From Bdellovibrionales bacterium (GTDB lineage Bacteria; Bdellovibrionota; Bdellovibrionia; Bdellovibrionales; UBA1609), in assembly GCA_041690295.1 (NCBI GenBank), contig JAWLHR010000005.1, positions 1 to 64,000 of the forward strand: a DNA stretch of 64,000 bases, read 5' to 3'. Every line of letters starts with the position of its first letter. Within the stretch, counting starts at the first letter, position 1. A program made the position numbers. Below, piece after piece: positions 6,001 through 12,000 of this stretch.

Positions 6001-9000
6001 GTACGGGTGAAAGAAGACGCCTTCAAAGAAGCTCCCTTTGATCTGAAGTCGATTGACGCGATTGTTCGCAATCTGGCGCGAAACCCCAAACTGATCGAGC
6101 GCCCTATAGTTATTAAGGGAAAGACGGCGGTTGTCGCTCGGCCGGTTGAGCGGCTACAGGATCTTTTGAAGCAATAACCAAGACATATCGATTTTGAAGC
6201 AGTCTAAATCTTGATAAATTTCTGTCTGGAATTTCAGACGCCGTCACCGTAAAAGCCCGCTATTTTCGATTTGAGCCCGCCTAAAATTGGCAGATTTCAT
6301 GCTGTTGTGTCCGGAAAGGGAAAGGAGCAAAGCATGAAAGCAAGTAAACGTCCTTTGGGTCGTACATCTTCCAACAACATGATTATTAAGCCTACGCGTA
6401 ATCCCATGCCTGTTGGAATGGAATTGCAACTTCAAAAGGTGTTGCAGGTTAACTAATCCAAACGGCCCCGCGGCCCTTCGCGGGGCCGATTCTTTCATGA
6501 GTTTGGCTATGTATTACTCAAAGGCACCTTTTGAATATATAGGTAAAGATAGTCATATCGTGGGCGATCGTGTCTTCTGCGGTCAGTATTGGGATGACCT
6601 GTCCGTGGCTGGGTTGTTGTGCCCGTCCGGGGGCTCGATTCTGATGCTGGGTTTGGGGCGTGGCGCCGCGATTCGGTCGATACTGGCTGTGAACCCAAGT
6701 GCGAATGTGACCGCAGTTGATAGTTCCAGCGAAAGCATTTCGGCGACCAATCAAATTTTCCAGACGCACTTTCCAAGACTTAATTTTGAAACCGTTCGTG
6801 CGGATGCCCTTTCGTACTTGCAATCCGTAAGTCAAAAATTCGACGTCATTTTGGTCGATCTTTTTACCGAAACCGGCTACGTGGCCCTTGCGGCCGACAA
6901 TCTCTTCTTAAGATCGTTGTCTAACTCGGTGAATCCTGATGGCGTTGTGCTTTTTAACTCCTATGGATGTCCCGCCCACCTTGTTGATCGGTCGGAAACC
7001 AGTTTTGAAAACTACCTTGCCGCTCAAATCCAACGCCGTTTTGATTACTTGTTCGAGCTGCCGCACCGTAAAAATCGCACGTTATTGGCCTCTAATCGAA
7101 ATCCAATCCGTCAATTCACTCATATCGACAGTGAATTCCTTAACGAAGAAGACAAAATTTTCGCGAGGACAATCTCGTTCAGATTGCGGTACGTAAGCCA
7201 AGTTGAGCAGGCCAATTCAAAAATCCCAAGCGAACTGGATTTTCAATCGATGAACCGGTCGACAATGCGAAAGTGGGAAGACTTTTATCACAATGTGAAT
7301 GCCGTTCTACAGGATCTAGGGGAGCCCGGGCTGAACAAGCTCGGTGAGTTATTCGACCTGGTCCAAAATGAAGCTTTATCGCGTAAGCTTTTGTGCGAAA
7401 CTTTGAAATACGCGAATAATCCCATTGCCATTTTTTATCCCACGTTCATCGCCGCGGAATCGAACAATCATGATTTGAAGGTGGATTGGTTTATTCAGTG
7501 GTTCTTCGAGAATTCAGATCATCTGCGTTCACATCATTTTCGTCTTTATACCCATCACTTTCTTCCCCAGATCCTGGCCATGGTTCTTCAGCCAAGTGGT
7601 CGGTTCCGAAATGAAGACAATTTGAAAAACTTGGAGAGACTCAATGAAAAACATTGTCATTATTGATCAGTTTTATTCCGACCCACATGCCGTGCGTGAG
7701 TTGGCATTGAGCTGCGAATGGATCGATAGAAGCAATCTGCCGGATCGCTTTCCGGGAACCGAGTCGGAGCACTCGTTCTTTACTGATGCCGTGGTTCAGA
7801 AGATTGAGAAAGCCGTAGGGAAAAAGATTGAAGTGGATCCGGAGACCACAAGTTTCGGCGTTTTCGCGAGAGCTTCTGACGCTGATGCCGGCAAGAATCC
7901 GGTACACATCGACCATACGGAATGGGCGGGCGTGCTTTACCTCTCAAAGAACGAGCAAGGCGGTACGAATTTTTATTGCCATAAGCGCACCGGCCACCGC
8001 GAGGTGCCTGGCCTCGAAGAGCTTCATCGTTTGGACTTCAAGGACCGGGAAGATTATCGCCAAAAGGTTGTTGTGCCGGACCAGTACAACCCCGAGGCGT
8101 GGGAACTCGACGTCAAGGTGGGGATGAAATTCAACCGGATGGTCTTGTTTCGGGCGGGCCATTTGTTTCATGCGGCCGCCAACTATTATGGGCGCGACGA
8201 GGAAACCGAGCGCCTACTTCAGTTATTCTTTTTTAACACGCGGGAGAATTAAAAATGGAAAGTCTTATTGTCTATGACGGATTTTACAAGGACCCGGAAG
8301 CGGTTCGTGAGCTGGCCTTGAGTTTGGAATACGAAAATGTCATTGCGCGGAACTATCCCGGATTTCAATCTCGCTACTGCGTGACGAACGAGCAAGTGCA
8401 AAAGAAATTCGAAGAGATCATGAATCGGAAGCTTCATATTGTTCCCGAGGAAATGACGTTTGGAAACTTCCGGATTATGCTCAAAGACACAGGTTCGCGA
8501 ATTAAAGTTCACGTGGATGGCGGGCCGACATGGACCGCGCTCATCTATTTGAATCCCGACGATCAGTGTCAGGGCGGAACGGGTTTCTTTAGACATAAGA
8601 AAACGGGACGCATCGCGCTGCCTTCGGATGAGGAAGCTCGGGAGCTTGGATACGAGGACAGTGAAGATTATGAGAACAAAGTCATTGTTCCTGATAGCCT
8701 TGATGATAGTGCTTGGGAGATGATTGATTTCGTGTCCATGAAGTTTAACCGTTTCGTGGCTTTCAGGGGCGGTGAGTTCTTTCATGCTCACACTTGCTCG
8801 TTCGGCTCTGATTTTAAAACGGGCCGGTTGACGCAAAACTTTTTCTTTTGGAACGCGGATGACGTCAACTAAGAACCTGAATCGCATACTTTGCGCCGTG
8901 ACCGTATCGACGTTCGGCAACTGGCTGACGTTTATCGCCATTGCTTTATTGATCGGTGAGCGATTTGGCGCGGCTAAAGTCGCGTATGCTTTTCTGGTTC

Positions 9001-12000
9001 AAGGTTTACCACCGCTTCTTTTCTCACATAAAGTCAGTCAGTGGACGAACCGGTTTCATCGCGGCCGTCTTTACGCCGGGCTTGAGATTTTGGGAGCACT
9101 CAATGTATTGAGCCTTCTTTTTTCTCAATCCATCATTCACATTTATATTTATCTGTTTATCGCCGCGACGATTCGGACCATCACGAATCCGTTGTTCAAC
9201 TCTTTTGTTAAGGATTGGATCGAGCCCGAGCACATGACCTCTGCTTTCAGGCAGGTGGGTGCCGTCAGCTCATTCACCTTGGCCGCGGGTCCCGCATTGG
9301 GTGGAACCATTTCGGCCTATTTCGGATATGAGATGTTGTTTGTCACTGATGCCGTGTTGTTGGTGCTCGCGGTGTCATTTGTTTTTCCTTTACTCAAGGG
9401 CACGAGTCCGGCCTCGCCCCAAGTGGCGACTCCCACGAGATTTCAGGTGCTTCCAAGTTTTGAGCCGAACCTCAATCAGGTGATCTGGATCTGGTTCGCG
9501 CTCATTTTGGTCGGCGCGTGGCTGAACGGAATTGAATTTCCAGTTCTATTCGCCGCGGGATTCGACAAAGTGCAAATCGGAACGGTTTTAAGTTCATGGG
9601 GATTGGGTTCGTTGGCCTCGATCGTGGTGACTCGGCGGGGAATACAGTTATCAGCGCCGGTTTTGATTGCCACCATGACCCTAGGTTTGGCGGGATTCGT
9701 GGTTTCGAGGGATCTGATCGTGACTTGCTTGAGTTTTGTGATCGGCGGATGTGCTTATGTGCTGTTTTCTGGTGCACTGAAGGCGCGGATCCAAAATGAA
9801 ATCAGTGAAAATGAGGATTCGGTGAAAGTTTGGTCCTACGTGAATCAAGGGGTCAACCTCATTAACGTTTTAACTTATTACGGGCTAGGTTTGCTTATTG
9901 AGAAAACCCCATTGGGGTGGCTGGGATTTGGTTTGATACTGTTGTCGGTATTCCTATTGGGTATAAGCGTGCGGTATTTGGGTGGTCCGAGCGCTGAATT
10001 TAAGAAGGAGAGTAAGTATGAGGTTCGTTCTTAGTCTTTTAATTTTAGCTATGGCTCAGGCGGGATTCGCCCAAGATTTGGGTCAGTCCGTGAAGTTTAA
10101 AGTTGAAGATGGTAAGCCGGAGTTCAGTTTGTTTTATGGAGAAAATCCAAAAACGTGGTTGCTATCCGCAACCTTTAGGCCGCGTGATCTTTCAGCAAAT
10201 TCTTTTTTCTCGGTTGTTTCGTGGACTTTATTTGATTCAAAGGCGGGAGAGTTTATAACAGGTTGGCGTACGGCGTGGGATCGTCCGGCGCAGTTTCCTG
10301 GTGATATCGGGTTTTTGCTTGAGCTGACAGAGGAAGAAGCCACATTAGCGACGCGATCATTGCCGGATTTGAAAGTTGTGTTCTCCGTGAACCACGGTTC
10401 AACGCCGGCACCAACCCATTTTGTGGATTTGGGAGCGTACTGCGATACTCATCCGAATTTCTTTATTAATTTCGACGACGAAAATGCCGCCGGTTGCGTT
10501 CGTTCGAACTAAACTCAAAAAATTTTGAATGGCGTATAATATACGCTTAAGGTCCTGCTGCTCCTGGGCGTGGATTGTATTAGCTCTTCCAGCACGATTC
10601 CCACGAGCAATAGATCCGCCAATCCGTCAAATACTCGGGAACGGAATTCACCACGTCGTCGACGATTTTTCACGGTACTTACTTCTTTTGATTATTCTGA
10701 GGCCATAAAAAGATTCTAAAAACTCCTGAAATTTTAGCCCGACAGTTTGCATTTGAGAGTCGTTGATGTTTATTTTCTTGGGAACCTCGACAATCAAACC
10801 GTTTCAATGAGGGCAATGAACGAAGTCTCGCTGCATAATGTTGATGTCGCAATTATGGCGACTTATTTCGTTATCGTTTTCTTGATCGGGTTTTACGTCT
10901 CACGTCGGACGAAATCGGACGAAGATCTTTTTCTGGCGGGCCGAAGCCTGGGATTCTTTTCAATCGGCCTTTCTCTTTTCGCCTCGAATATATCGAGTTC
11001 GTCCATGATCGGTTTGGCAGGGGCCGCGTATTCCCATGGGATTGCCGTTTCAAATTACGAGTGGATGGCTGCGGTCGTCTTGGTTTTCGTGGCTTGTTTT
11101 TACATTCCCGTCTATCTGAACGCCAGGATCACGACGATCCCTGAATTTTTGTTGAAACGCTTTGGGGGATTTTCAAATCGGTATTTTTCGGCGGTTACGA
11201 TATTCTTAAGCATTATCGTGGACACGGCGGGCGGACTTTATGCCGGTTCGCTCGTATTGATCACTCTGATCCCTCAGTTGGACTTATACACCACGTGCGT
11301 GGCACTGGCTCTGGTCACCGGAATTTATACGGCAGCGGGAGGCTTGCGGGCCGTCGTTTACACCGATGTCATACAAGCAATCGTCTTGCTTATCGGTTGC
11401 GGGCTGACGACGTTTATTCTTTTCAGTCACTACGACTTCAGTTGGACCGCGCTTCGCGCGTCGGTTCCCGCGGATCGCTTATCTCTGATTCGACCGCTGA
11501 ATGACCCTCAGCTCCCGTGGCTCGGAACGTTGACCGGAGTTCCCATATTGGGATTCTGGTATTGGGCGACCAACCAATACATTACACAGAGAATTTTGGC
11601 GGCGAAGAATATTTCTCATGCCCGATGGGGGGCGATGCTGGGTGGAGTTCTTAAGCTGACACCTCTCTTCCTAATGGTTCTTCCCGGCTCGATGGCCATT
11701 GGAATCTTTCCGGACCTTCCGAATCCGGACATGGTTTTTCCCACATTGGTGACAAAGATTTTACCGGTCGGAGTGACAGGATTAGTTTTGGCGGGACTGA
11801 TCGCCGCGATCATGTCGAGTATCGATTCAACTTTAAATTCGGCGTCAACACTCATTATTCATGATTTTGTGAAAGCGCGGAATCCTATGCTATCCGCTCG
11901 TCAAATGGCTTTTTATGGCCGAATTACCACTTTGATTCTCATGATCATTGCCGCGCTTTGGGCGCCAATGATTTCAAGATTCGGCGGACTGATTTTTTAT

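Follow-up and report, generated by a model that had tools for sequence, protein, structure and literature searches.

A predicted RiPP operon with an S-x-N-N-M precursor, paired DUF6445 oxygenases and a spermidine-synthase-fold SAM enzyme in Bdellovibrionota

An operon of a Bdellovibrionales bacterium (UBA1609; Bdellovibrionota) very probably encodes a RiPP precursor together with its modifying enzymes, and would belong to an undescribed peptide family, possibly of antibiotics. It occupies positions 6334 to 10034 of contig JAWLHR010000005.1 (assembly GCA_041690295.1), within the window analyzed here (the first 64,000 nucleotides of that contig). The genome-wide survey's note had placed the operon there, and the sequence confirmed this placement, with all genes open and on the plus strand. 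The first open reading frame encodes the putative precursor peptide of 40 residues (6334 to 6456; all features given here are on the plus strand), whose relatives adjoin the methyltransferase gene in three phyla; its ATG lies 6 nt downstream of a ribosome-binding site, AAAGGAG (6321 to 6327). The peptide contains a conserved core, S12-S13-N14-N15-M16 (6367 to 6381), matching the family pattern S-x-[N/D]-N-M, and ends in a 24-residue tail (6382 to 6453). A G+C-rich hairpin (6463 to 6488), with a T-rich tract behind it, sits between the peptide and the enzyme genes. These encode a SAM-dependent enzyme of 389 residues, proposed to be an N-methyltransferase (6497 to 7666, alternative ATG at 6509; Methyltransf_31 and Spermine_synth above cut-off), DUF6445 proteins 1 (202 residues; 7644 to 8252; E 1e-15) and 2 (205 residues; 8255 to 8872; E 2e-17), and an MFS transporter (MFS_1, 391 residues; 8859 to 10034), the proposed exporter. 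No sigma-70-like promoter was found upstream of the operon. The gene at 10018 to 10512 is absent from related loci.

DUF6445 protein 2 has matches in 13 of 384 genomes of the order, 7 of which, from two families, carry an adjacent pair, the same count as in the survey. The survey had found the peptide in six of these seven; peptide, methyltransferase, and MFS gene are now found in all seven, and the AAAGGA site reported upstream of the peptide is present in six, the seventh having AGAGGA. The related loci examined likewise have a purine-rich site ahead of the peptide. Counted through the DUF6445 pair, linkage thus holds in six of six loci other than the study locus, all six carrying the methyltransferase and MFS genes that the survey had reported at three loci. 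A search with the methyltransferase only gave the peptide and DUF6445 at 15 of 16 loci and reached Streptomyces, Nocardioides, Gandjariella, Paenibacillus, Thermoactinomyces, and other orders of Bdellovibrionota. The cluster is therefore found across three phyla and not, as first reported, in one order, which lends further support to the original reading of a peptide-modifying operon. The peptide is present at 22 of 23 full-length methyltransferase loci and the MFS gene at 21 of 23. The one locus without the peptide, in genome G372, lies at a contig end, and neither DUF6445 nor peptide was found there, which we counted against the RiPP reading. Gene order differs between loci while the gene set stays constant, and trees of the methyltransferase and of DUF6445-2 branch identically for the six closest loci. 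All DUF6445 matches fell inside the cluster in five of five Gram-positive genomes tested. The cluster is rare: among 401 Streptomyces and 401 Paenibacillus-order genomes sampled, only the seed genome was found in each set (scoring was limited to 4 candidates per genome). A metagenome scan confirmed 1 locus among 52 stretches, ending 360 bp into the methyltransferase, and a search with a Streptomyces methyltransferase gave no plasmid match.

Forty relatives of the 40-residue peptide were recognized among 85 candidates. Across 49 aligned peptides, the core Ser, N15, and Met are invariant (49/49 each) and N14 is kept in 47, with Asp in the other two; the conserved motif is thus narrower than the R-T-S-S-N-N-M originally described. 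The core lies 23 to 27 residues ahead of the C terminus; 46 of the 49 peptides have a tail of 24 or 25 residues, and the N-terminal part spans 9 to 29. Because a conserved core stands at a fixed C-terminal distance behind a variable N terminus, the precursor looks follower-type, the tail being the proposed recognition region. Codons of the core change synonymously between loci. Six Streptomyces copies show 14 codons with synonymous differences only and 11 with a changed residue, all 11 outside the core; for three close relatives of the study locus the figures are 18 and 11. The pattern S-x-[N/D]-N-M occurs in 1 of 20,687 open reading frames of 30 to 70 residues in the study genome, and the peptide gave one match per genome in four of five genomes tested. 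With a profile built without it, the study-locus peptide came out on top among 68,354 frames (E 0.001). A profile from the seven Gram-positive peptides alone did not pick it out, and this miss, with the divergence of the peptide, we counted against the RiPP reading; the study-locus peptide is basic, as is its tail, and lacks Cys, which is present in 39 of 49 peptides. The hydrophobic moment of the tail helix was significant at p < 0.05 for just 4 of the 49 peptides, so amphipathicity is unsupported, and the ESM Atlas returned nothing usable for a typical precursor. Inside Bdellovibrionota about 30 peptide residues are conserved, as might be expected of an accessory subunit, scaffold, or carrier in a pathway whose enzymes modify a free metabolite (amino acid or polyamine). 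Between phyla, however, conservation shrinks to the four polar core residues and the fixed spacing, and we consider such a role improbable.

The operon opens with the peptide gene, and a terminator-like hairpin comes next, an arrangement also expected of a regulatory leader peptide (attenuator) that senses Asn or Met ahead of a metabolic operon. The hairpin (−24.4 kcal/mol; z, −4.1) was matched in stability by 0 of 200 shuffles, and folding downstream of the peptide gene has z < −2 at 18 of 22 loci (mononucleotide shuffles). Nevertheless, the core lies about 75 nt ahead of the stop codon, the tail is conserved at the protein level, the gene that follows the peptide varies between loci, and two Bacillota loci have no stable hairpin there. 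Rfam gave no match at E ≤ 0.1. On these grounds the attenuator was rejected as very improbable. If the peptide is instead a RiPP precursor, the hairpin would restrict read-through, so that the 40-residue product would outnumber the enzymes.

The two DUF6445 proteins of the study locus are 40% identical to each other and carry H88, D90, H176, and R190 (protein 1) and H86, D88, H177, and R191 (protein 2). As the survey's note had stated of the HxD…H…R residues, these four are kept in every covering segment (51, 51, 50, and 50 of 52, the remainder being gaps); the distal Arg is presumably the 2-oxoglutarate binder. The model of protein 1 (pLDDT 93) has a double-stranded beta-helix superfamily fold, and its Foldseek matches (probability, 1.0; TMq, up to 0.58) reproduced the earlier likeness to BesD/Hal and OGFOD1. 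OGFOD1 aligned with a VIA Z of 12.9 (rmsd 3.0 over 159 residues), tied within about 1 Z with protein prolyl hydroxylases. All fold matches are Fe/2-oxoglutarate enzymes, and the model supports such an oxygenase fold with an intact metal triad. DUF6445 had no NCBIfam match, and its profile had no PDB sequence match. Small-molecule hydroxylases and halogenases stand among the fold matches beside the protein hydroxylases, which we counted against the RiPP reading, and the top Foldseek matches act on free lysine or ornithine, as would suit an accessory peptide in a metabolite pathway. In BesD/WelO5-type halogenases, Gly or Ala replaces the triad Asp; that Asp is present in 51 of 52 DUF6445 segments, with one gap, and a halogenase was rejected. 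DUF6445-2 belongs to a paralogue lineage present in all three phyla. Outside the clusters, DUF6445 genes are solitary or in different settings, so the first role earlier assigned to DUF6445 is a prediction for this subfamily. Two distant DUF6445 relatives were seen on viral contigs, and the one with its open reading frames examined lies outside such a cluster.

The number of DUF6445 genes equals the number of core Asn/Asp residues at 21 of 22 loci, with three and three in eight actinobacterial loci and two and two elsewhere. At the sole mismatch a DUF6445 copy is cut by an insertion, and one two-gene locus has a stop-split gene. This match rests on roughly one evolutionary event, in the actinobacterial lineage, and where core position x is Glu a third enzyme is lacking. 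Both points we counted against the RiPP reading, as we did the enzyme-substrate covariation, which is mixed: of the two loci with Asp14, one alters two otherwise invariant Asn residues of DUF6445-2, and the other keeps the single readable one. Each oxygenase may oxidize a single Asn of the core, with beta-hydroxylation as the simplest possibility, and to this step we give an even chance. Within the probability of the RiPP reading, and not in addition to it, a sizable share goes to other chemistry: desaturation, cross-linking, or backbone cleavage by the oxygenases and, for the SAM enzyme, a side-chain target (the amide of Asn, a new hydroxyl, or the Met sulfur) or aminocarboxypropyl transfer; a Met sulfonium could then drive cyclization or tail release. 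The Ser and Met, equal to the core Asn in invariance, would fit such chemistry, as would the missing peptidase of the minimal cluster, and a 2-oxoglutarate-dependent RiPP enzyme that cleaves the backbone oxidatively has been described (PMC12636437). The tracking of Asn/Asp number by oxygenase number argues against it, as does the dedicated M16 peptidase at 6 of 10 Gram-positive loci.

The SAM enzyme (87 family representatives at E ≤ 1e-30) consists of a spermidine-synthase-fold domain (residues ~10 to 240) and a helical domain (240 to 389) with no clear match, all ESM Atlas leads for it being below 0.9. Spermidine synthases, 3gjy, and METTL13 (5wcj; Z, 15.4; rmsd 3.2 over 175 residues) tie as its best fold matches. 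Its top hits are polyamine enzymes, a point in favor of a free-metabolite pathway. However, the acid of the GxG(D/E)G motif, which binds decarboxylated SAM and is a published test for spermidine synthases (PMC10349129), is Arg55 at the study locus; among 71 relatives this position is Asp in 5 and Glu in none. NCBIfam speE-type models scored 16 to 53 bits against cut-offs of 250 to 537. A spermidine synthase or aminopropyltransferase was ruled out on the missing acid and these scores, and "methyltransferase" is a reasonable label for the predicted SAM enzyme. The C-terminal domain of METTL13 and fungal NHMT share its fold, likewise lack the acid, and have a similarly spaced post-II Asp and distal Asn (PMC6109062, PMC10349129). 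D121 is invariant and N193 is kept in 70 of 71 relatives; the 72 residues between them equal the METTL13 D575-N647 spacing, a residue mapping made by spacing only. Unlike METTL13 and NHMT, the SAM enzyme is bacterial, is fused to a helical domain of 150 residues, is linked to a small-peptide gene, and does not conserve the second post-II Asp (METTL13 Asp577); this loss, the tied fold matches, and the spacing-based mapping we counted against the proposed reading. Known peptide methyltransferases of this fold target N-terminal residues (PMC6109062, PMC10349129), which also weighs against side-chain chemistry; the family-specific R60 and R191-R192, which are conserved and have no explained role, weigh for it. 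A complex prediction of methyltransferase and precursor scored 0.04 against a mark of 0.32 and weighs neither way.

Accessory genes of the Gram-positive loci are known RiPP enzymes. A TIGR03975 B12 radical-SAM methyltransferase (563.8 bits; cut-off, 281.85) occurs with DUF5825 at 7 of 10 loci, and a YhhC-like 2-oxoglutarate oxygenase (146.7 bits; cut-off, 150) lies beside the precursor at 2 of 10. In the clavusporin (mpc) pathway, the radical-SAM/DUF5825 pair acts on precursor peptides, which argues against an accessory subunit, and the precursor there is likewise of about 40 residues, with an internal core, an acidic follower, and an MFS transporter (bioRxiv 10.1101/2024.01.23.576971). Here, by contrast, the pair is optional, the core is the polar S-x-N-N-M, and any peptidase present belongs to M16, not S9; the mpc genes named in the available text include neither DUF6445 nor the SAM enzyme. 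No B12 radical-SAM enzyme, DUF5825, or S9 peptidase occurs in 20 kb at the study locus, and the radical-SAM relative of the study genome is on a different contig. The Asp/Asn beta-hydroxylase pathways of SmaO, YhhC, CinX, and CanE also combine a precursor having Asx in its core with co-encoded Fe/2-oxoglutarate oxygenases, but in those pathways a class-defining enzyme (ATP-grasp, radical SAM, lanthionine, or lasso) builds the scaffold that the hydroxylase decorates (PMC12186529). The minimal DUF6445 cluster lacks such an enzyme, its oxygenases being DUF6445 proteins, and has no peptidase; both absences we counted against the RiPP reading.

Short Asn-containing cores and an exporter are also found in microcin C and pantocin A, the latter with an internal core, a follower, and a 2-oxoglutarate oxygenase. 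Both need a ThiF-type adenylyltransferase, and the microcin C precursor ends in Asn. The study-locus peptide ends in Asn too, but this residue is not conserved, the core is internal, and no protein of the study operon matched ThiF; a microcin C-like system was rejected on these points. Bleomycin begins Ser-Asn-Asn, and this likeness was rejected because x stands between the Ser and the Asn pair of the core.

Under the RiPP reading, the enzymes would hold the fixed-length tail and so place the core S-x-N-N-M for the oxygenases. Removal of the variable N-terminal piece may then allow the spermidine-synthase-fold enzyme to methylate the freed alpha-amine, as the METTL13 C-terminal domain does, for which we put the chances a little short of even. 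A housekeeping protease could cut off the tail, or oxidative cleavage could release it, and the MFS pump would export the product. Gram-positive versions have more parts, namely a third oxygenase, a second methyltransferase, and a protein of pentapeptide repeats. The gene for the last of these is inside 10 of 10 Gram-positive clusters and is absent from 13 of 13 Bdellovibrionota stretches examined and from the study genome. Its product, with an additional N-terminal region of about 100 residues, scored best against Alr5209/HetL-type models and far under the Qnr and MfpA cut-offs. Microcin B17 has the pentapeptide-repeat self-resistance gene McbG in its topoisomerase-inhibitor cluster. Similar genes accompany cystobactamid (CysO) and pyxidicycline (PcyT) (PMC8597713, PMC9231227), and the gene in the Gram-positive clusters hints at a topoisomerase target. 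It is conceivable, though rather unlikely as a whole, that DUF6445 and the follower-binding spermidine-synthase-fold methyltransferase alone define a new RiPP class, in which S-x-N-N-M, with one oxygenase per Asn, becomes a tiny N-methylated hydroxy-asparagine antibiotic poisoning DNA gyrase/topoisomerase IV; minimal clusters would free the core without a dedicated protease, and the pentapeptide-repeat gene would protect Gram-positive producers.

We found no literature on DUF6445 (PF20043), although it may have been described under different names (few subscription journals and no supplements were covered), one unrelated paper on the core motifs, nothing on the cluster by title and abstract start, and no RiPP study in the study locus's bacterial group. 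If the reading is true, this would be a RiPP family without a known class-defining enzyme, spread across three phyla. Two uncharacterized enzyme families, the DUF6445 subfamily and the two-domain spermidine-synthase-fold SAM enzyme, would gain a genetically encoded substrate from the cluster, so the chemistry of both becomes testable. Since named, cultured Streptomyces and Thermoactinomyces strains have the cluster, its product can be sought, and with a pentapeptide-repeat gene in the cluster, a topoisomerase-directed antibiotic is a testable possibility.

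Within the window, a 40-aa ORF with a good ribosome-binding site encodes a putative precursor peptide (positions 6334 to 6456, + strand). It is followed on the same strand by a hairpin (6463 to 6488) and by genes for a SAM enzyme (hereafter also the methyltransferase; 6497 to 7666), two DUF6445 proteins (7644 to 8252 and 8255 to 8872), and an MFS transporter (8859 to 10034). The four enzyme and transporter genes abut or overlap, and the operon did not differ from its flanks in G+C content. Overlapping the MFS stop codon is a gene (10018 to 10512) for a 164-aa protein whose start resembles a signal peptide; this protein had no Pfam or NCBIfam match and was absent from related loci. 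Farther downstream, two convergent genes (12569 to 14056) resemble, by eye, secreted pilus or spore-coat-U-type subunits.

The second DUF6445 protein was matched in 13 of 384 genomes of the order: seven genomes from two families carry an adjacent pair, reproducing the count in the genome-wide survey's note, one has two matches on separate contigs, and five have a single match. That note had placed the peptide ORF at six of the seven pairs; the association was upheld but the count was not, since the peptide is present in each of the other six pair genomes. All six also carry the methyltransferase and MFS genes, extending a linkage previously read in three loci, with the methyltransferase last rather than first in three of the six. 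A profile of the seven order peptides yielded 40 relatives among 85 candidates; two relatives carry the source label Bdellovibrionaceae.

Beyond the order, a methyltransferase profile recovered 87 representatives (E ≤ 1e-30) in two main groups, and 71 near-full-length rows were aligned. In 401 sampled genomes of the window's phylum, nine long matches fell in eight genomes, five of which were new; the other matches were confined to the SAM-binding part and were as long as ordinary spermidine synthases. With ten proteins of the second group as queries and one search pattern, 185,579 genomes gave at least 10 confirmed loci out of 62 stretches: six in Streptomyces and one each in Nocardioides, Gandjariella, Paenibacillus, and Thermoactinomyces. 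Peptide and DUF6445 genes adjoin the methyltransferase in all 10 of these Gram-positive loci and in five of six new loci of the window's phylum. In the exception (genome G372), the methyltransferase sits at the edge of a contig, and the assembly yielded neither DUF6445 nor the peptide. The earlier statement that all examples come from one order is therefore superseded: the same unit occurs in three phyla. Two loci are damaged, with a DUF6445 gene split by a stop codon in genome G432 and cut by an insertion in the second copy of genome G404. The latter genome holds two cluster copies (L078 on contig C48 and L079 on contig C6), and the gene cutting DUF6445-2 looks like a serine recombinase. Because samples of 401 Streptomyces and 401 Paenibacillus-order genomes gave no match except the seed genome, the cluster is rare.

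Across 49 peptides, S12, N15, and M16 were invariant, and position 14 was Asn in 47 and Asp in two. The tail after Met spans 24 to 25 residues in 46 peptides (range, 23 to 27), and the part before Ser varies from 9 to 29 residues. Among close peptide groups, codon changes were often synonymous and spared the core, and 18 of 22 loci have a folding hairpin after the stop codon. The constant tail length, the short invariant core ahead of it, and the free N-terminus together suggest that the tail is a follower bound by the enzymes. The tails of the window's peptide and that of genome G278 are basic; most others are acidic. The pattern S-x-[N/D]-N-M occurred in only 1 of 20,687 ORFs of 30 to 70 aa in the window's genome. 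A profile built without the window's peptide, some of whose members came from a search seeded with it, ranked that peptide first of 68,354 frames (E = 0.001), and a profile of Gram-positive peptides alone missed it. The invariant Ser and Met may be sites of other chemistry. One precursor with an S-Q-D-N-M core (L076:2610-4998; genome G432, contig C134) is preceded by a short MFS gene and by an AMP-binding gene that resembles acyl-CoA ligases, and may belong to an acylated variant.

The H-x-D...H motif and distal Arg of DUF6445 were kept wherever covered in 52 segments from 22 loci, and a structural model (pLDDT 93) matched Fe/2OG enzymes exclusively, small-molecule hydroxylases and protein hydroxylases alike, none of them standing out. 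The invariant residues and the 2OG-Fe(II) dioxygenase fold put forward earlier were thus both borne out. The invariant Asp of the triad speaks against halogenation. The second paralogue groups as a single lineage across three phyla (FastTree support, 0.84), and the remaining copies split into two or three lineages whose deep branches are weakly supported. In 21 of 22 loci, there are as many DUF6445 genes as core Asn/Asp residues; these loci are akin rather than independent and represent about one evolutionary event. Eight actinobacterial loci have three of each (position 13 being Asn or Asp), and two of each are found elsewhere; both Bacillota loci have Pro at position 13 and an added YhhC-like oxygenase of family PF13640. 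This match favors one oxygenase per Asx. At one of the two Asp14 loci, two otherwise invariant Asn residues of paralogue 2 are swapped to Arg and Leu; at the other, the sole readable one of the two is kept. On these sequences, covariation with the core residue is mixed.

Residues 10 to 240 of the SAM enzyme adopt a spermidine-synthase fold, with spermidine synthases, 3gjy, and the METTL13 C-terminal domain tied (Z, 15 to 17), and residues 240 to 389 are helical and could not be matched clearly to any known domain. Spermidine synthases need the acid in GxG(D/E)G (excerpt of PMC10349129); 5 of 71 relatives have it, and the window's enzyme has Arg at this position. METTL13-C methylates a protein N-terminus via Asp575 and Asn647 (excerpt of PMC6109062). 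D121 (71 of 71 relatives) and N193 (70 of 71) lie equally far apart, the match being made by spacing with an offset that fits the aligned range; METTL13-C's second Asp, however, is not kept. By this analogy, our best guess is that the SAM enzyme N-methylates a freed amine.

Each of the 10 Gram-positive clusters carries one extra methyltransferase: in seven it is a TIGR03975 B12 radical-SAM protein with DUF5825, in three a CmcI-type enzyme, and the two never occurred together in the stretches read. Clavusporin biosynthesis uses the radical-SAM/DUF5825 pair to methylate a precursor whose follower is acidic (excerpt of bioRxiv 10.1101/2024.01.23.576971). An M16 peptidase is present in six of the 10 clusters and a pentapeptide-repeat protein in all 10. 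Pentapeptide-repeat genes mark self-resistance to topoisomerase inhibitors (excerpts of PMC8597713 and PMC9231227), which makes gyrase a candidate target of the Gram-positive products. Because the cluster proteins score far under the Qnr and MfpA cut-offs, and no such gene was found in 13 stretches of the window's phylum or in the window's genome (99.9% complete), gyrase is a rather doubtful lead, and less probable still for the window's product. A small DJC28_CD-domain gene beside the MFS gene flanks both Bacillota clusters (L065:2349-2759 and L073:10547-10939). Elsewhere in the window's genome (G000:C2:30902-35206, outside the window), a radical-SAM gene of TIGR03975 likeness (32% to its Streptomyces counterpart, E = 3e-76) has a 48-codon Lys/Ser-rich ORF just upstream and is divergent from genes that by eye are methyltransferase-, solute-binding-protein-, and MFS-like; this is possibly a second RiPP locus.

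DUF6445 genes also occur outside the peptide cluster, so the first role claimed for DUF6445 can be proposed for the cluster's subfamily and not for the family at large. A different subfamily of ~250 aa adjoins HlyD genes at L033:4791-11538 (genome G110, contig C90) and L031 (genome G326, contig C8); L033 also has a C39-peptidase-type ABC transporter nearby and an 81-aa ORF with a double-glycine-like leader (4791 to 5036, - strand). These loci are a second, independent peptide-type setting. On a viral contig (L001:740-8478), a 1,391-aa collagen-like gene is immediately followed by DUF6445, after which come a glycosyltransferase-OGFOD2 fusion and a further 2OG oxygenase; this arrangement suggests modification of a viral fiber protein. 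Two stand-alone actinobacterial genes (L082:1360-2112, genome G982; L083:1411-2115, genome G741) had no peptide or methyltransferase within 3.5 kb, and at L030:6558-13562 (genome G186, contig C65) the neighbors of a single DUF6445 gene include a stand-alone Lant_dehydr_C gene and an acyl-CoA dehydrogenase.

From the gene linkage, conservation pattern, folds, and catalytic residues observed, the cluster has the genomic hallmarks of a RiPP pathway and is predicted to work like one. The tail would guide enzyme binding, and each core Asn would be oxidized; beta-hydroxylation, by analogy with SmaO, YhhC, and CinX (excerpt of PMC12186529), has about an even chance. Removal of the N-terminal piece with alpha-N-methylation could follow, at slightly below even likelihood. 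A host protease or oxidative cleavage, which has precedent (excerpt of PMC12636437), would release the tail, and the product would be exported. The window's operon failed the tests for a spermidine synthase, a halogenase, a clavusporin cluster, and a microcin C cluster. No description was found in a literature of largely open-access papers, supplements excluded, when DUF6445, PF20043, the core motifs, and combinations of terms were queried. The cluster apparently represents a real, rare, cross-phylum, and undescribed RiPP family whose enzymes are directly testable.
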